Sequence record: EU863409 | Strand: one strand, 5' to 3' | DNA length: 64,000 nt | DNA from: Escherichia phage JS10 | Part shown: one piece after another, positions 1-7,766 of the stretch | Layout: each line of letters starts with the position of its first letter | Position numbering within the stretch: the first letter of the stretch is position 1 | Notes under the pieces: model-generated | Seen by the model: the letters and a program-made list of their open reading frames with translations, nothing else | The model's database searches: none | What the model was told of the DNA's origin: nothing | Position numbers and translations under genes: made by a program

Positions 1-399
1 CAAGACGAATTGGCTTATGGTGTATTAAAGAATGGTCTGCCTCTTTATGCCGATATGAATAGTCCATGTGATTATGTTATTGTTGGTGTAAATGCTCAGA
101 TGGGTGAAGGACAGACGGTCGCATCTTTATATTATGCGCCTTATACGGAAGGTTTGGATGTGGTTGATGAAGAAGGTGATACTTCAGTAGGTGAATTTAA
201 GGTTATTGTTGACCCAGAAAGCTTACAACCTACAGTAGCATTGCTTGCTCGTTATGCATTGACTGCAAACCCTTATACCGTCGCTAAGGACGATAAAGAA
301 GCCCGCATTATTGATGGCTCTGATATGGACAAAATGGCTAACCAAAGCCAGTTGAGTTCTTATCTTGGTGTAAAACTTCCTCCATTGGATAAAAACTAA
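1..399 (+). CDS. 24: gp23/gp24-family capsid protein, C-terminal part (5' end outside window); gp24 (head vertex) by synteny
   Basis: Open frame runs from the window edge to the stop at 397-399; lies immediately upstream of rnlB as gene 24 does in T4; followed by a hairpin terminator. Confidence 0.5.
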   Translation, partial: QDELAYGVLKNGLPLYADMNSPCDYVIVGVNAQMGEGQTVASLYYAPYTEGLDVVDEEGDTSVGEFKVIVDPESLQPTVALLARYALTANPYTVAKDDKEARIIDGSDMDKMANQSQLSSYLGVKLPPLDKN

Positions 400-432
400 A
401 AAGGGACCTCACGGTCCCTTTACTGTTTATTT
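395..432. terminator. Bidirectional rho-independent terminator between convergent gene 24 and rnlB
   Basis: Hairpin agggacc-tcac-ggtccct (about 402-419) with an A-run upstream and a T-rich run downstream. Confidence 0.6.
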
Positions 433-1455
433 GGATACTAGTTCAATCCATACAGCTCGTAGCGTATCTTTAACGCACTCAACGAGCTGCTTTTTAACTT
501 CAACAGGGTTTTCTGCATCGGTTAATTCTAATTCTTCACGGGCTGCCTCTTCCAAAATATCTTGGACCGTCAAGCCCATTACCTTTCCAAAATCTTTAGG
601 TGTTACTTCACCAATCTTACTGATAACGTTATTGATACGGTTAACTGTCACATAATCTGTGAATTGCCACATCAAGTCCATATCGTCTTGGGACAATACT
701 ACTGCAGCCTTAATAGGCTTATCAGATTTTTTCTTCTCGCTGAATTTAGAGTTCTTACATTTAATCGCTACACGATTTCCATTAGGAAGCCAGATTGGAA
801 CATCAGGTTTCAGTACAAAGCCTTCAGCCGTAAATACTTTACCTTCGACCTTAGGAATAAAATCGGTTGAGTTAGCAATGGTTAAACCTGCATTATCCAC
901 TGCAAAATTGTAATCTGGGATAACAGAATCAAAATCATTCGGCAGTTTAATAAGGTCTTCAAAGCTACCTGTGGCTAAGCACGGAGCAACCTTAAACTTA
1001 TGGATAATACAGAAAGCTTCCATAAGGGTATCAGTTAAAACGGATTCGGTGCCATCTTCTTTAGTAACACGGATATCAAATACATAAAAGTCTTTATCGC
1101 CGTAATCCACATTCTTCTGGATACCCGTACCAGCGAACTCGCCATAAATTTGGTACGACTGATAATTAATAGATTCGATTAGATGTTGAACAGATTTAAT
1201 AGAATCAGCATAGTTCTTAAGTACAATTTCATAGCCATAGAAATCTTCGGCCGGGAGAATTGGGCCAGTGCGCTTGGCGCACGTGACTGCGTCACGTTCT
1301 ATGATTAAACTAAAGTTGGTTCCATGAATCTTCTCACGTGCTACCCATTCACCACCAGTCAAACCATGGGTACGGAGTTTTTCGATAAACTTACTGTTGT
1401 AATGGTTTTCCAGACTGCTATATTTCTTGAACATATTATTTGCTTCCATAATCAA
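427..1455 (-). CDS. rnlB: RNA ligase 2 (Rnl2)
   Basis: 342 aa; N-terminus [16 protein letters not shown]...[15 protein letters not shown] matches T4 Rnl2 as I recall it, including the KxHGxN nucleotidyltransferase motif. Confidence 0.9.
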
Positions 1456-1804
1456 TTTTAACTAATTTACCTTTAAGGTAACCATAATTTGAAGGTTTAC
1501 AATCAGACATATACATGCTTTCTACCAGAGTGTGGTGCCTAGCATGGTGTATTTCTGTTTTCCACAACCCTATATTAGTAACTTCTTTGGCCCTTGGCAT
1601 AACTATAACAAGTCCTAACCAAGATTTCCATATAACAGGACACAAATACGGGTCCTTCAATGATGAGAATTCATGTTCTGTTATATTGCAATAGAGTCCA
1701 GTTAAAAACAGTTTCCAACTATAGAAGCTTGGTATCTTAATGGCGTATCGTTTCGTCAGGAAGACCTGCCGGGTTGCACCATTTCTTTTTCTGATAAATG
1801 GCAT
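1436..1804 (-). CDS. hypothetical protein (24.2-position)
   Basis: 122 aa ORF with ATG start, co-oriented with rnlB, in the T4 24.2 position. Confidence 0.45.
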
Positions 1805-2199: not shown

Positions 2200-3207
2200 A
2201 TGGCAGATTCTATTTTTGGTCATGACGGTCGAGGGACCTTTTCCGGTATTGCTTTAAAGGAATCGGATACTGTTATCCCTTTTGAAAAAATTCTTACTAA
2301 AGAAAGTCTTATAAACCCGGCAAGATTGGTAGGGAGTAATTCGTATGGCTTAGGCTTGGTTAGTAAATCCGGAAGAGCTGAAGTTCTGGCCCATTTGGGG
2401 ATAACCGAAGAAATGTTATCCCCTGGTATCCCTGGCCCTAAAGGTGAAAGCATTGTAGGACCGAGAGGCCCGGCTGGTCCTGTAGGCCCTGTGGGTCTAA
2501 ATTGGAAAGGAACATGGAGTGCTGCAACAGCCTATGTTAAGGATGATGCAGTAGGGTACAATGGGGCTTCTTATTTTTGCGTTCAGGATTCTACCGGTAA
2601 TAATCCTGCTGAAGAAAACAGCCTTTACTGGGCCTTATTGGCTTCTCAGGGTGCACAAGGCGAACAGGGTATCCCGGGTAAAGATGGTGAGCAGGGTCCG
2701 CAAGGTGTTCAAGGTCCTCCTGGGGTGGATGGGATTGATGGACTTGACGGAGCTACTGGCCCTCTAGGTCCTCAGGGTCCTCAAGGCGAACCTGGTAAAG
2801 ATGGCACAGATTTGTTTTCATTCCATAAGTATACCAACGTTGCTGCTGGGTACGGTGAAATAAAAATACCTGGGGTCGCCAATACGGTTCTTAGAGTTAG
2901 ATTGGTTAACAACCAAATAGAATACAGCATTTTAAGTAAAGGTGGGACTACCCGATATTGTGATTATCACTTTGTTGCTCCTAGTGTTTCGGGTGGAACG
3001 GTTACTACCGGTGGCGGAACTAAGACTTTGTCTCCTACAGGCTCATTTGTTATAGTAAGTGCGGCATATAACGGGCTACGTCCTATTAATATAACCTTAA
3101 AGGAATGGGGTTCTAAAACAATTTCAGAAATAACAGTATTTCAACACGGGCGCAGTGTAGATTCTAATAAACCTATATTGGTTAAAATGGTTAGTTTCCC
3201 TTATTAA
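2200..3207 (+). CDS. collagen-like repeat protein with a CBM5/12-like aromatic motif
   Basis: 335 aa; AGGAG RBS before the ATG; Gly-X-Y tracts (GIPGPKGESIVGPRGPAGPVGPVG; GAQGEQGIPGKDGEQGPQGVQGPPGVDGIDGLDGATGPLGPQGPQGEPGKDG); motif TWSAATAYVKDDAVGYNGASYFC...P...LYWALL resembles chitin-binding type 3 domains. Confidence 0.8.
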   Translation: MADSIFGHDGRGTFSGIALKESDTVIPFEKILTKESLINPARLVGSNSYGLGLVSKSGRAEVLAHLGITEEMLSPGIPGPKGESIVGPRGPAGPVGPVGLNWKGTWSAATAYVKDDAVGYNGASYFCVQDSTGNNPAEENSLYWALLASQGAQGEQGIPGKDGEQGPQGVQGPPGVDGIDGLDGATGPLGPQGPQGEPGKDGTDLFSFHKYTNVAAGYGEIKIPGVANTVLRVRLVNNQIEYSILSKGGTTRYCDYHFVAPSVSGGTVTTGGGTKTLSPTGSFVIVSAAYNGLRPINITLKEWGSKTISEITVFQHGRSVDSNKPILVKMVSFPY

Positions 3208-3218
3208 TTGGAGGTAGC

Positions 3219-4079
3219 ATGTCTATACAAGTAAATGGACCTCATTATGAATTGGTTGGGAGAACGGTAACTCTTAGGGCTGTTTTATCTGAATCTTTAA
3301 CTGACGCTGATATAAAATGGTACAAAAACGGTGTAAACGTTCCATTATTAGATAAAGAAGACCCGATGTATCTAAATCTTTGGGATGTAGGGTTTCCGGC
3401 TTCTGGGACCTATTATGCAATAGCAACCGATAAACTTACACAAGAGGTTTTTCAAAGCGACGATTTTGTTTTAGAAATAGGAATGGAGCCTAGAGATATA
3501 GTTATTTCCGTAGAAAATTTAGATGCTATCGTAAAGGCGGCCATAGGTCAAAAAGTTTCTTTACAACCTTTAATTTCTATGGGTGCCACGCCCTGGGCTG
3601 AAGTCGAGTGTGAATGGTGGAAATACGATAAAATGGTTTCAAATGTAAAGGATTTGGACGTTGATATAAATCCTTCTATGTACGGGACATATTCACTTAA
3701 TGTTTCTGCTACCGCTGAAGGAGCCTATAATCCGTATCATGATATAGTTACGGTAGATATCATGCCTTTAGATGGTATTTTACCAGAACCTGAAGTGTGT
3801 CCTTTTATATACTCGAATGATTTAAATCAATATTTGTCTTATCCTGGTGGAAGAAATAGGGCTCATATGTGGATAGGTTGGTGGGTATTGGATGAGATAA
3901 AAGGAGCCCTTGCTAAAGACCAGGATTGGGCTATCAATATAGAAGATAGCAATTTTAGGTATAAGTGTGAGCTCATGAAAGTGGCAGAACTTTTGTCACG
4001 ATATCCTGATGTAGAAATACAGGAATCAAGAAATGGATACATTTTGAATAGGAAGCACCTGACATTAAATGTCATATAA
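3219..4079 (+). CDS. Hoc-like protein: Ig-like N-terminal region plus Hoc-type C-terminal capsid-binding region
   Basis: 286 aa; GGAGG RBS; Ig-like segment IKWYKNGVNV...SGTYY; C-terminus WIGWWVLDEI...DW...EDSNFRY...YPDVEIQESRNG parallels the canonical Hoc C-terminus at 4124-5533. Confidence 0.8.
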   Translation: MSIQVNGPHYELVGRTVTLRAVLSESLTDADIKWYKNGVNVPLLDKEDPMYLNLWDVGFPASGTYYAIATDKLTQEVFQSDDFVLEIGMEPRDIVISVENLDAIVKAAIGQKVSLQPLISMGATPWAEVECEWWKYDKMVSNVKDLDVDINPSMYGTYSLNVSATAEGAYNPYHDIVTVDIMPLDGILPEPEVCPFIYSNDLNQYLSYPGGRNRAHMWIGWWVLDEIKGALAKDQDWAINIEDSNFRYKCELMKVAELLSRYPDVEIQESRNGYILNRKHLTLNVI

Positions 4080-4080
4080 C

Positions 4081-4112
4081 AAAACGGGAGAGCGAAAGCT
4101 CTCCCGTTTTTA
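4081..4112. terminator. Bidirectional rho-independent terminator between the Hoc-like gene and hoc
   Basis: Hairpin cgggagagc-gaaa-gctctcccg flanked by an A-run and a T-run. Confidence 0.65.
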
Positions 4113-4123
4113 TTTAGCCAAAA

Positions 4124-5533
4124 TTAGTAAAAATAAATTATACCTGTGTCAAGAGCCGAACGATGGATAATTCTTCCATTTCGTGATTCTTGTACATCAA
4201 CCTCTGGATAATCCGCAACCATTTTTTGAAGAGTGTAGCGATGGAGATAATAATTGCTATCTGGGTCATCAGTTTTCCAATCTTTACCTTCAAGTGTCAT
4301 TTTCTGGATTTCATCCATAACCCACCAACCGGCCCAAATATACGCTGAATTACGAACCGGCAGCGGATGGACGTAAGGTAGTTCGCCTTCCGGTTCAGGA
4401 GCAACTTTAGGCGTAATTGTTACATTACCAGATTTTTTGACAGTCACAGGATTATAGTCGGTAGCCGAAACCACAACAGAAACTTCAATAACCTGTGAAC
4501 CTTCAGCACTTGTATCGACTACTAAAGTATCTGTGGTGCCGGCAACAGGTGAACCATCTTTCTTCCAAGAATATGCAAAAGTAGCACCAGCAGGCGCACC
4601 TGCTACGGTAGCTTTAAAAGAAGCTGGAGTTCCTTCCGGAGTATTAATAGAGGCCGGCGCTAAAGTAACAGAAACACCTGTCATGGTCTTTTTAGTAATT
4701 GTTACACTTCCGGTTTTGGTAACGGTTAAATCGTTATAATCCGTACCTTTTAGGACTACCGAAACTTCAATAGTGTAAGAACCTACTGTAGATGTATCAA
4801 CAGCAAGGGTATTACTGCTTTCGCCCGGAATAATAGAACCATTTTTCTTCCAAGAATAAGTTGCATTTACGCCGGAAGGAGCGCCAACTACATCCGCTTT
4901 AAACTGTGCAGATGAGCCTTTCTCTGTACTAATTGAGGCTGGTGTTAAAGTAACGGAAGCACCTGATATAGTTTTCTTAACAAAAGTTACCGCAATACCT
5001 TTAGTAGCTGTAGCCGGGTCATATTCAGGGGCGGTAACAGTAACTTCACAGTTCAACGTGTAATTTGCTTCTGCTGCTTCAGTTACAGTAATAGTTTTAC
5101 CAGTTTGACCTGAAATTACAGTTGTATTACGTTTCCAAACATAAGCCATTGTAGCGCCAGCAGGGACACCCGATACGTTAGCAGTAACAACTTGGGATTG
5201 ACCGATTTCTTTAGAAACGGAAGTAGGGTCTAAGGTCAAAGAAAGAGCCCCAATGGTCTTATTAGCTACAGTAACTTCAAAAGTTTTTTCAGCTACCTCA
5301 GGTTCGCCTTCGGTCGGAGTAGAAGTTGCTACTACTTTTAAAACTTTCTTACCAGCTGGAGCCGCACCGGTATATCTCAAAACATTGGTGGCCTCTGGAT
5401 TAGAAGCACCGTCAATGGTCCATACATATGTAACGGTTCCTTCTACAGCTGCACCTGTTGCGGTAGCAGTGTAGTTGGCGCTTTCGCCTATTTTAATAGA
5501 CGCAGCGCCGGCTATACTTACAGTAAAAGCCAT
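4124..5533 (-). CDS. hoc: Hoc, highly immunogenic outer capsid protein (Ig-like repeats plus capsid-binding C-terminus)
   Basis: 469 aa; several Ig-like repeats (AT[FY][AS]WKK[ND]GS...), C-terminal WAGWWVMDEI...YPEVDVQESRNG; position as in T4. Confidence 0.85.
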   Translation of the reverse strand: MAFTVSIAGAASIKIGESANYTATATGAAVEGTVTYVWTIDGASNPEATNVLRYTGAAPAGKKVLKVVATSTPTEGEPEVAEKTFEVTVANKTIGALSLTLDPTSVSKEIGQSQVVTANVSGVPAGATMAYVWKRNTTVISGQTGKTITVTEAAEANYTLNCEVTVTAPEYDPATATKGIAVTFVKKTISGASVTLTPASISTEKGSSAQFKADVVGAPSGVNATYSWKKNGSIIPGESSNTLAVDTSTVGSYTIEVSVVLKGTDYNDLTVTKTGSVTITKKTMTGVSVTLAPASINTPEGTPASFKATVAGAPAGATFAYSWKKDGSPVAGTTDTLVVDTSAEGSQVIEVSVVVSATDYNPVTVKKSGNVTITPKVAPEPEGELPYVHPLPVRNSAYIWAGWWVMDEIQKMTLEGKDWKTDDPDSNYYLHRYTLQKMVADYPEVDVQESRNGRIIHRSALDTGIIYFY

Positions 5534-5542
5534 ATTTTACCC

Positions 5543-6214
5543 TTATTTTAAAGTTACGAAAGATGAATTACGCGTTTCACGTACTAATACTGAACCATTA
5601 CGATTAATGTAATAAATCAGACTGAATAGTGTTTGGTGGGCAGATGGGTGTTGGAAATCTTTAGGGCGTTCTTTCCAATCAGGGGTTTCGGTAATCCATT
5701 GATAAATCCACCAAGGCACGGTACAATACCCTGGGTTTTTACCAATGAGTAAAAGATTAGGGCTAAAGTTTTCAGGCAAAGAGAATACAGGTTTTTCCGA
5801 TTCAATAACCTTGGTTACGGCCTCTTTGAATTTCTCTTCGACAAACGGAACATCTTCTTCAATAATCTCTACCTTAGGAAGTTCGGCTACCTCAATAACT
5901 TCAACTACTGCTTCAGGGGCATCAAATAATAGGGTAGCTTCTTCTTTGGCAGGTTCCGCACCATCAACAAATTCGTTAGCGCCTGTGAGTTCGTCGGCGG
6001 CATCAATCAAATCAGAAATAGACAAACCTTCGGTTTCTGGAAGTGGTTCATCAGCCAAGGCTTTAAGGCCTTCAGAGATATCGATAATCAAATTATCAAA
6101 CGAACGGGTTTTCTTAAGTTTTAAACCGAATTGTTCGCCGTATTCGATTAACTTAGCTTTAGCTTCTTTTTTATCTTCGAGTGCACGAAGCTCTTCAATA
6201 TATTGAGTATCCAT
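5543..6214 (-). CDS. inh: Inh-like protein (inhibitor of prohead protease), by synteny
   Basis: 223 aa acidic protein between hoc and uvsW; size and position match T4 inh. Confidence 0.55.
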   Translation of the reverse strand: MDTQYIEELRALEDKKEAKAKLIEYGEQFGLKLKKTRSFDNLIIDISEGLKALADEPLPETEGLSISDLIDAADELTGANEFVDGAEPAKEEATLLFDAPEAVVEVIEVAELPKVEIIEEDVPFVEEKFKEAVTKVIESEKPVFSLPENFSPNLLLIGKNPGYCTVPWWIYQWITETPDWKERPKDFQHPSAHQTLFSLIYYINRNGSVLVRETRNSSFVTLK

Positions 6215-6233: not shown

Positions 6234-6241
6234 TATAAATA
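6234..6241 (+). promoter_or_regulatory. T4-type late promoter TATAAATA upstream of uvsW
   Basis: Exact TATAAATA about 30 nt upstream of the uvsW ATG. Confidence 0.5.
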
Positions 6242-6247
6242 TAATTA

Positions 6248-6255
6248 TATTTATA
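6248..6255 (-). promoter_or_regulatory. T4-type late promoter TATAAATA (- strand) upstream of inh-hoc
   Basis: Forward tatttata is TATAAATA on the - strand, about 35 nt upstream of the inh start. Confidence 0.45.
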
Positions 6256-6269
6256 ACTGAGAATTAGAC

Positions 6270-7766
6270 ATGCAAATTCAAGTACATTTTGATAATTTTA
6301 GTCATGTTCGTGTCGAGTGTGATGAATCCACCTTCTACGAACTCAGAGACTATTTCAGCTTTGAAGCTGATGGATATAAATTTAACCCTAAATACCGTTA
6401 CGGGCAATGGGATGGGAGAATTCGTCTTCTAGATTATAACCGTAAACTTCCATATGGTCTAGTCCCACAAATTAAAAAATTCGCTGACCAGTTTGAATAC
6501 TCTCTGTGGATTGACCCACGTATTCTTGAACAGGAAGATATTTCTCGCGAAGATTTTGACTCATGGGTAGCTTCACAAGAGATTTATTCAGGTTCTACCA
6601 AGATTGAGCCGCATTGGTATCAGAATGAAGCCGTATACAACGGTCTGACGAAACGTCGTGCAATTCTGAATTTACCTACATCTGCAGGTAAATCATTGAT
6701 TCAGGCGCTCCTGAGTAGATATTATGTTGAGAACTATGAAGGTAAAATTCTTATCTTAGTTCCTACTACTGCACTTGTTGACCAGATGATTAATGACTTC
6801 ATTGATTATCGTTTGTTCCCTAAAGCTGCTATGCTTGGTATTCGTTCAGGTACTGCTCGTGATTCCGATGCAATGATTTATGTTTCAACTTATCAAACGG
6901 CTATTAAACAACCTAAAGAATGGTTTGCTCAGTTTGGTATGTTTATGAACGACGAATGCCATTTGGCGACAGGTAAATCAATTTCTACCATCATCGAAGG
7001 CCTAACCAATTGTATGTTTAAATTCGGTTTGTCTGGTTCTTTAAAAGACGGTAAAGCCAATTTAATGCAATATATGGGTTTGTTTGGTGATGTGTTTAAG
7101 CCAGTATCCACTTCGCAGTTAATGGAAGAAGGACAGGTTACAGACCTTAAAATCAACAGTATTTTCCTTCGTTATCCGGATGAATTCACTGTTAAGATGA
7201 AAGGTAAAGATTACCAATCAGAAATAAAGGTCATTACTAAGGCTACTCGTCGTAATAAATGGGTTGCTAATTTAGCTGTTAAACTCGCTAAGAAAGAAGA
7301 GAACGTATTCCTGATGTTTAAAAACATCGAACACGGTAAAACTCTTTTTGAAATGGTTAAAGAGCAACATAAAGAAGTTTATTACGTATCAGGTGAAGTT
7401 AATACCGAAACGCGTAATGCTCTGAAAGTAATGGCGGAAAATGGTAAGGGTATTATTGTTGTGGCAAGTTATGGTGTGTTCTCTACTGGTATTTCCGTTA
7501 AGAACCTTCATCATGTTGTATTTGCTCATCCGGTAAAATCCAAAATCATTGTACTCCAGACAATCGGTCGTGTACTCCGTAAACATGCTTCTAAATCAAC
7601 AGCACAAGTTTGGGACATTATAGACGACATGGGCGTTAAGCCTAAATCAGCAAATGCTAAAAAGAAATATGTTCATTTGAATTATGCATTAAAACATGCC
7701 TTAGAACGTATTCAACGTTATGCTGACGAGAAATTTAATTACGTAATGAAACAGGTGGATTTATGA
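6270..7766 (+). CDS. uvsW: UvsW DNA/RNA helicase (SF2)
   Basis: 498 aa; N-terminus VHFDNFSHVRVECDESTFYELRDYFSFEADGY and Walker A LPTSAGKS match T4 UvsW as I recall it. Confidence 0.9.
   Translation: MQIQVHFDNFSHVRVECDESTFYELRDYFSFEADGYKFNPKYRYGQWDGRIRLLDYNRKLPYGLVPQIKKFADQFEYSLWIDPRILEQEDISREDFDSWVASQEIYSGSTKIEPHWYQNEAVYNGLTKRRAILNLPTSAGKSLIQALLSRYYVENYEGKILILVPTTALVDQMINDFIDYRLFPKAAMLGIRSGTARDSDAMIYVSTYQTAIKQPKEWFAQFGMFMNDECHLATGKSISTIIEGLTNCMFKFGLSGSLKDGKANLMQYMGLFGDVFKPVSTSQLMEEGQVTDLKINSIFLRYPDEFTVKMKGKDYQSEIKVITKATRRNKWVANLAVKLAKKEENVFLMFKNIEHGKTLFEMVKEQHKEVYYVSGEVNTETRNALKVMAENGKGIIVVASYGVFSTGISVKNLHHVVFAHPVKSKIIVLQTIGRVLRKHASKSTAQVWDIIDDMGVKPKSANAKKKYVHLNYALKHALERIQRYADEKFNYVMKQVDL

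Follow-up and report, generated by a model that had tools for sequence, protein, structure and literature searches.

The gp24 to uvsW segment of Escherichia phage JS10, a Dhakavirus with a T4-like genome, forms part of the 64,000-nucleotide stretch (sequence record EU863409) that was analysed here and is referred to as the window. In this segment, a short hoc gene on the plus strand and a long, canonical hoc gene on the minus strand run towards each other. A sequence-only reading had singled them out as a convergent pair of Hoc paralogs. Both open reading frames (ORFs) were confirmed at exactly the coordinates given in Table 1, and they do end tail-to-tail at one terminator: the two genes converge on a bidirectional, perfect and GC-rich 13-bp hairpin with T-runs on either side and a dG of ~-23 kcal/mol on each strand. 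The long hoc gene lies downstream of inh in one late operon. The short hoc gene starts 11 nt past the end of a collagen-like fibre gene and has its own GGAGG ribosome-binding site. We found that the natural unit at this locus is not the two hoc genes together, but the collagen-like fibre gene plus short hoc, a conserved, mobile accessory cassette of two genes. The convergent geometry merely reflects the site where this cassette was inserted.

That JS10 carries two Hoc genes is already known. The GenBank record names both of them hoc, and the entry 'hoc head outer capsid protein [Escherichia phage JS10]' matches the short protein at 100% identity. Relatives have long carried similar annotations, with hoc names also in JS98-type phages: IME08 (2010) has a pair of 'hoc' genes annotated in a matching convergent arrangement, dhabil has two 'head outer capsid proteins', CGG4-1 a 'Hoc I' and a 'Hoc II', and Aeromonas phage 65 a 'hoc-2', labelled as a second copy of hoc. 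Fokine et al. (2023; PMC10385173) discuss the Serratia phage Muldoon and the Enterobacter phage PG7 as cases with a pair of Hoc-like proteins, and also the idea that phages reuse the Hoc C-domain for the display of other ligands. The observation of two Hoc paralogs in one phage, as it was originally made, adds nothing to the public record. What is apparently undescribed is that short Hocs of this lineage are strictly coupled to a gene for a collagen-like fibre: we found nothing on such a pairing in the open-access literature, and other literature may contain a description.

The short and long Hoc proteins

BLASTP aligned the short and long Hoc proteins of JS10 with an E-value of 4e-20 and 29% identity across 196 aa, a similarity far beyond chance. 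A related C-terminus had been proposed at a length of ~70 aa; the relatedness was borne out, and the length was revised to a common domain of ~90 aa. Searching the Protein Data Bank (PDB) with phmmer, we matched residues 122-284 of the short Hoc to the T4 Hoc chains of solved capsids (5vf3_Z, 8t1x; E = 1e-16), with residues ~281-376 as the homologous part of T4 Hoc. Profile searches assigned the short protein to PHROG 1149 'Hoc-like head decoration' (3.7e-44) and to PHROG 21694 (2e-10). An AlphaFold2 (AF2) model built from 11 homologues reached a predicted local distance difference test (pLDDT) score of 85 and contains beta-sandwiches at residues 1-90 and 95-183, followed by a beta-plus-two-helix C-domain at 194-286. 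The top Foldseek match of this model in the PDB was to the immunoglobulin-like (Ig-like) domains of RB49 Hoc (3shs; E = 3.4e-11). The beta-sandwiches and the match to 3shs agree with the earlier count of about two Ig-like domains in the short protein, on whose sequence the Pfam Ig models stayed below threshold. Comparison with Esco_phi_B-01, the closest record in the phage collection (96.6-97% nucleotide identity), revealed purifying selection on short hoc, with a ratio of non-synonymous to synonymous divergence (dN/dS) of 0.10 from 47 synonymous and 20 non-synonymous differences.

The long Hoc matched PHROG 1149 with an E-value of 1.2e-120 and has the sequence features of the Hoc family as well as the expected gene order, downstream of inh behind a late promoter. 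The several Ig-like repeats attributed to it are four Ig-like domains that precede the C-domain. No significant sequence similarity was detected between the Ig domains of the short and the long Hoc (z<4), which upholds the proposal that the two proteins display different domains. Ig domains 3 and 4 of the long Hoc (aa 187-377) are 60% identical to each other, a sign of recent duplication within the protein; it has four Ig domains, compared with three in the Hocs of T4 and IME08.

Within the ~80-aa core of the C-domain, the short and long Hocs of JS10 are 37% identical, compared with 87% for JS10 long Hoc and T4 Hoc and 67% for the short Hocs of JS10 and dhabil. The long Hoc is thus much closer to T4 Hoc than to its neighbour, and the two JS10 proteins belong to old, separate Hoc lineages rather than being recent duplicates. 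In a neighbour-joining tree of the C-domains, the fibre-linked short Hocs formed clades of their own across genera. The short Hoc of Muldoon fell in the canonical clade, being 61% identical to the JS10 long Hoc and 38% identical to the JS10 short Hoc.

The C-domain of the short Hoc contains two cysteines, Cys194 (3798-3800) just before beta1 and Cys250 (3966-3968) in helix 2. These positions were either both or neither occupied by cysteine in 31 of 31 aligned Hoc-type C-domains. Both cysteines are present in the short Hocs, in CGG4-1 HocII, in the long Hoc of VR25 and in both Muldoon Hocs, and both are missing from T4 Hoc and the JS10 long Hoc. Their paired occurrence suggests a disulfide or a tight contact. 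As a marker specific to short Hocs, the pair was rejected, because it is widespread among Hoc C-domains.

The fibre and short-hoc cassette

Among phages and metagenome contigs of at least six genera, more than 20 have short hoc directly behind a fibre gene. The phage collection held full-length relatives of the short Hoc in ~18 phages and the N-terminal domain of the fibre (N-domain) in 16. For 14 of the 14 phages that appear on both lists, gene coordinates placed the fibre gene directly upstream of short hoc on the same strand; the cases beyond these 14 were read by eye. Immediate upstream position on the same strand, with a gap of 0-12 nt or an overlap, was found in dhabil, CLB_P2, CGG4-1, ABTNLsp5, TH15 and VR25, and likewise in the Aeromonas phages 65, AS4, GomatiRiver_11 and AhFM11, the Erwinia phages FBB1, Cronus and IT22, and the Pantoea phage Phynn. 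The pair was also present on three unrelated types of metagenome contig, one of them with a different gene neighbourhood. In ABTNLsp5, TH15 and Phynn the pair is kept with a diverged N-domain, and the fibre of Phynn is without any collagen.

Throughout the phage collection, the fibre N-domain occurred only in genomes with a short Hoc or a remnant of one. PspYZU05 retains both cassette genes as decayed remnants, and AP1 has only a 78-aa N-fragment. In IME08, a 24-codon fibre remnant (MPDNPLYGHDGRG...F*; positions 3397-3471 of locus L002), in which the N-terminus is fused to the last codons, stands right before short hoc. IME08 also contains a second fibre copy after gp24 (570-1966) that has the same N-domain and is interrupted at ~774-779 by a stop or frameshift; the interruption could be a sequencing error or the mark of a pseudogene. 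One locus of the Salmonella phage CGG4-1 (L006, 4998-9590) contains three genes of the Hoc type, namely the fibre-linked 'Hoc I', a 944-aa 'hypothetical' protein that ends in a Hoc C-domain, and the 279-aa 'Hoc II'.

The cassette is accessory and mobile, being present, absent or swapped among near-identical Dhakaviruses. It is missing from MX01, where gp24.3 abuts hoc. Nucleotide identity between JS10 and dhabil is at most 70% across 2234-4164, and 83-95% in the flanks. Synonymous divergence (dS) between JS10 and Esco_phi_B-01 (locus L026) forms a sharp mosaic, with values of 0.017 for the fibre gene, 0.32 for short hoc and 0.084 for long hoc. The difference between fibre gene and short hoc implies that a recombination breakpoint lies between these two genes.

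The fibre matched Pfam Collagen (1.2e-10) and CBM_5_12 (7e-5) as well as PHROG 5073 'tail fiber protein' (1e-69), and has 20 overlapping G-X-Y triplet windows. Its N-domain of ~75 aa is conserved in every partner of a short Hoc, and the exchangeable domain at its C-terminus comes in at least four types. The N-terminus of phage fibres is usually the end that attaches to the virion. The JS10 protein is presumably trimeric; an AF2 monomer model of its full length had a pLDDT of 44 and was unusable. An exhaustive HMMER search of 1.84 billion representative proteins returned ~18 true carriers of the N-domain, always at the N-terminus and before collagen, and never fused to Hoc; multi-repeat TPR-like matches (GRAEVLKALGRL) in the same search were spurious and were rejected on inspection. 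A word-indexed protein search with the N-domain profile gave no matches, and scans of IMG/VR with the N-domain and the short-Hoc Ig region returned only the CGG4-1 and Aeromonas 65 genomes, which were already known. No homology was detected between the N-domain and any other ORF of the window. Profile-profile comparison of the N-domain with the short Hoc likewise revealed no relation, which ruled out the fibre as a third carrier of a Hoc domain.

The C-domain type of the JS10 fibre is also found in VR25 and in collagen proteins of Drexlerviridae such as AugustePiccard, at 46-56% identity. In the siphovirus AugustePiccard (L023, 2591-5396), the collagen gene belongs to the head module, with the major capsid protein gene on one side and, on the other, the preceding gene for a 429-aa 'putative head outer capsid protein' that has a GDSL-like motif (GDSYTYG). 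The latter neighbour recalls the GDSL-type Hoc-like protein of PG7 (PMC10385173).

The remaining features of the segment are listed in Table 1. Between rnlB and gp24.3, a ~370-bp stretch that contains the 122-aa ORF is missing in dhabil, IME08, ABTNLsp5 and Esco_phi_B-01. Since it is missing even in Esco_phi_B-01, which is 97% identical, this stretch is a JS10-specific insertion. The 55-bp inh-uvsW intergenic region contains two overlapping, divergent TATAAATA late-promoter motifs (6234-6255), one for each gene.

Table 1. Features of the gp24 to uvsW segment of JS10 (positions in the window unless given as aa).
Feature	Position	Strand	Details and basis
gp24, C-terminus	10-399	+	Pfam/PHROG annotation
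Bidirectional terminator, gp24/rnlB gap	400-421		Perfect hairpin; design as in the hairpin between the two hoc genes
rnlB	427-1434	-
122-aa ORF	1436-1804	-	PHROG 4301, unknown function, E = 2.7e-40
gp24.3/DUF2774 gene	1920-2168	-
Collagen-like fibre gene	2200-3207	+	335 aa; first cassette gene; Pfam, PHROG
Fibre, N-terminal domain	aa 1-75	+	GHDGRGxF...LGIT; followed by collagen G-X-Y
Fibre, CBM5/12-like part	aa ~100-135	+	Followed by collagen
Fibre, C-domain	aa ~203-335	+	Variable, beta-rich
Short Hoc-type gene	3219-4079	+	286 aa; ORF, BLASTP, PDB match, PHROG, AF2 model
Short Hoc, Ig-like domain 1	3219-3488	+
Short Hoc, Ig-like domain 2	3501-3767	+
Short Hoc, capsid-binding C-domain	3798-4076	+
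Shared bidirectional intrinsic terminator	4080-4112 (core 4086-4105)	both	AAAACGGGAGAGC-GAAA-GCTCTCCCGTTTT
Canonical (long) hoc	4124-5533	-	469 aa; PHROG 1149, Pfam Ig_3/I-set/Ig_2
Long Hoc, T4-type capsid-binding C-domain	4127-4402	-
Long Hoc, four Ig-like domains	4403-5533	-
inh (inhibitor of prohead protease)	5543-6214	-	Annotation of homologous loci; Pfam Phage_Inh in locus L015
T4-type late promoter motif, second copy	6234-6241	+	TATAAATA; facing uvsW
T4-type late promoter motif	6248-6255	-	TATAAATA; upstream of inh-hoc
uvsW	6270-7766	+

Capsid binding and the role of the cassette

For T4 Hoc, Fokine et al. (2023; PMC10385173) listed the residues in contact with gp23 and those that keep the binding loop in place. 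When C-domains from the whole family were aligned, the short Hoc proved to retain 13 of these 16 residues (Y293, R300, W306, W309, W310, D313, Q354, E355-S-R-N-G359 and Y360), and the long Hoc retains 14. In its own numbering, the short Hoc has E269-S-R-N-G273, Y198, R212, W221, W222 and D225. Given this retention of contact and structural residues in both proteins, binding at the same site is plausible. The sequence thus suggests that the short Hoc is quite probably a capsid decoration protein at the centres of gp23 hexamers, where it would share sites with the long Hoc, and binding at hexamer centres is the most economical interpretation of its C-domain.

In the explanation that we regard as likely for the locus as a whole, two Hocs of old lineages coexist, the short one docks at hexamer centres, and the cassette may serve as a head-adhesin unit. 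The C-domain of the short Hoc would dock on the centre of expanded gp23 hexamers as does T4 Hoc, a dispensable protein with one copy at each of these centres. The ~155 hexamer sites would then be divided or contested between the short and long Hocs, with a mixed decoration as the result. With lower confidence, we propose that the cassette would work as a unit to add a second adhesin to the head, and that the fibre may dock, by its conserved N-terminal domain, on the conserved Ig domains of the short Hoc. Put in its strictest form, this proposal would make the short Hoc a capsid adaptor whose C-domain sits in the gp23 hexamer centres and whose two Ig domains hold the fibre N-domain; from the sequences, we consider such an adaptor possible but rather doubtful. 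If it exists, it would provide T4-like phages with exchangeable head fibres whose ligand-binding tips can be swapped and are shared even with siphoviruses, in other words a modular, horizontally mobile head-adhesin system that is undescribed for Straboviridae.

Several observations weigh against parts of this explanation. Three of the listed T4 residues are substituted in the short Hoc (H295N, H299G and Y304H), and the short Hocs of Dhakavirus and Gelderlandvirus have a ~9-aa insertion in the beta1-beta2 loop, so that the binding site or the orientation could differ. This loop contacts Asp336 of gp23 in T4 Hoc, and the insertion is the least confident segment of the AF2 model. With respect to the anchoring of the fibre, IME08 keeps its short Hoc despite having the adjacent fibre gene cut down to 24 codons, the VR25 (Gaprivervirus) pair consists of a truncated N-domain and a Hoc-like protein of separate descent, and the stoichiometry of a fibre trimer held by a Hoc monomer is awkward. 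By their discordant dS values, the fibre and the short Hoc also have different histories in the comparison of JS10 with Esco_phi_B-01. Distances between fibre N-domains and Hoc Ig domains are correlated in a mirror-tree analysis (r ~0.7); this value is compatible with co-evolution and equally with plain co-inheritance, and was not used as evidence. Expression signals raise a further difficulty. No exact TATAAATA motif was found upstream of 2200 or of 3219 in JS10, and the terminator at 400-421 directly after gp24 weakens read-through of the gp24 late transcript as a source of expression. In several relatives, a TATAAATA late promoter precedes the fibre gene at -42 (ABTNLsp5), -75 (Phynn) or -43 (locus L020), and the fibre gene directly follows gp24 in IME08 and FBB1. 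Finally, the open-access literature yielded no virion proteomics for phages of the JS10/JS98 type or for other carriers of the cassette.

Some of these observations would be expected if the short Hoc were an independent second decoration protein and the fibre a separate appendage, either a tail or neck fibre or a protein that binds the capsid directly, as SPP1 gp12 does. Adjacency would then merely reflect co-regulated late accessory genes that move together. We give this alternative a little less than an even chance. It agrees with the 'tail fiber protein' annotation of PHROG 5073, with a fibre N-domain that is neither related nor fused to Hoc, with the deletion of the adjacent fibre in IME08, with the dS discordance and with the direct hexamer binding of the SPP1 gp12 collagen trimer. 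The 'tail fiber' name is, however, an annotation carried over from collagen and CBM similarity, and in the open-access literature we found no experimental evidence for tail or baseplate attachment of the fibre or for a role in host recognition. The alternative also has to explain why the N-domain occurs only where there is a short Hoc or its remnant, whereas gp23, neck and baseplate, the alternative candidates for docking, exist in all T4-like phages, and why the pairing persists in contexts as different as L020, Aeromonas 65 and Phynn. In addition, IME08 does keep this N-domain in its second copy of the fibre gene. By analogy, the C-domain relative in the head module of Drexlerviridae and the precedent of SPP1 gp12 favour an association of the fibre with the head.

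The short Hoc might instead act away from the capsid, with its Hoc C-domain reused in a fibre assembly chaperone or a tip adhesin that follows the logic of T4 gp38 and gp57. Short hoc lies directly downstream of the fibre gene and translationally close to it, a position that is often typical of such proteins, and the loop insertion and the three substituted contact residues also speak for it. We nonetheless judge a role of this kind improbable, given that the ESRNG loop, the Trp pair, R300 and D313, which are important for binding T4 gp23, are kept family-wide, that the conserved end of the fibre is its N-terminus and not the variable C-terminal tip, and that Pfam and PHROG scans revealed no similarity to known fibre chaperones. 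A local and recent duplication of hoc, with the short copy now redundant or decaying, appears least probable of all and is already contradicted by the C-domain tree and by dN/dS. The two genes do adjoin and have a C-terminal domain in common, and decayed versions exist in PspYZU05 and Cronus (166 aa). The divergence of the two JS10 C-domains relative to that of long Hoc and T4 Hoc, the separate clades of short Hocs across genera, the intact and constrained ORF and its strong ribosome-binding site all speak against it, and the true tandem duplicate of Muldoon differs in layout and belongs to the canonical clade.

Significance and comparison with known systems

The coupling of the fibre to the short Hoc could give a concrete candidate for head fibres of T4-like phages, and JS10 could offer a natural case of mixed occupancy of Hoc sites. 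With its two orthogonal anchors of the Hoc type, the system might in addition be used as a scaffold in phage display or in the engineering of host adhesion. More generally, the cassette bears on the purpose of Hoc-type decorations, such as adherence to mucus and other surfaces or the dispersal of virions.

Both JS10 Hocs resemble T4 Hoc (5vf3, 8t1x) and RB49 Hoc (3shs) in having N-terminal Ig-like domains. The long Hoc is a near-orthologue of T4 Hoc, with a C-domain 87% identical to it. The short Hoc has a fixed set of two Ig domains instead of the three of T4 Hoc, and its C-domain, at only 35-37% identity to that of the T4 type, ends without the GIIY tail and carries the ~9-aa loop insertion. 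Unlike T4-type hoc, short hoc is located on the opposite strand, where the gene before it is a fibre gene and not inh. Muldoon, whose short Hoc is 314 aa long, and PG7 each have, like JS10, a pair of proteins with a common Hoc capsid-binding domain and different N-terminal modules. Muldoon short Hoc also shares with its JS10 counterpart the possession of two Ig-like domains; it differs in that its gene is a tandem copy that comes straight after long hoc and is accompanied by no fibre gene, and in its place in the canonical clade. The GenBank entries for JS10, IME08, CGG4-1 and Aeromonas 65 cover the same protein family, with no word on its function or on the adjoining 'collagen-like' or 'tail fiber-like' gene.

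Precedents for fibrous, trimeric and non-essential appendages of phage heads are the head fibres of phi29 (gp8.5) and SPP1 gp12, a collagen-like trimer bound at hexamer centres of the capsid. In contrast to both, the JS10 fibre has an N-domain of its own, a CBM5/12-like module and a dedicated partner gene of the Hoc type. Another counterpart is the 'collagen repeat protein' of Drexlerviridae (AugustePiccard bas01_0010; gp11 of e4/1c), which has collagen, a CBM-like module and a related C-domain (46% identity) in common with the JS10 fibre. It differs from the JS10 protein by a different N-terminal domain of ~105 aa and by a neighbour that is of the GDSL type and not a Hoc.

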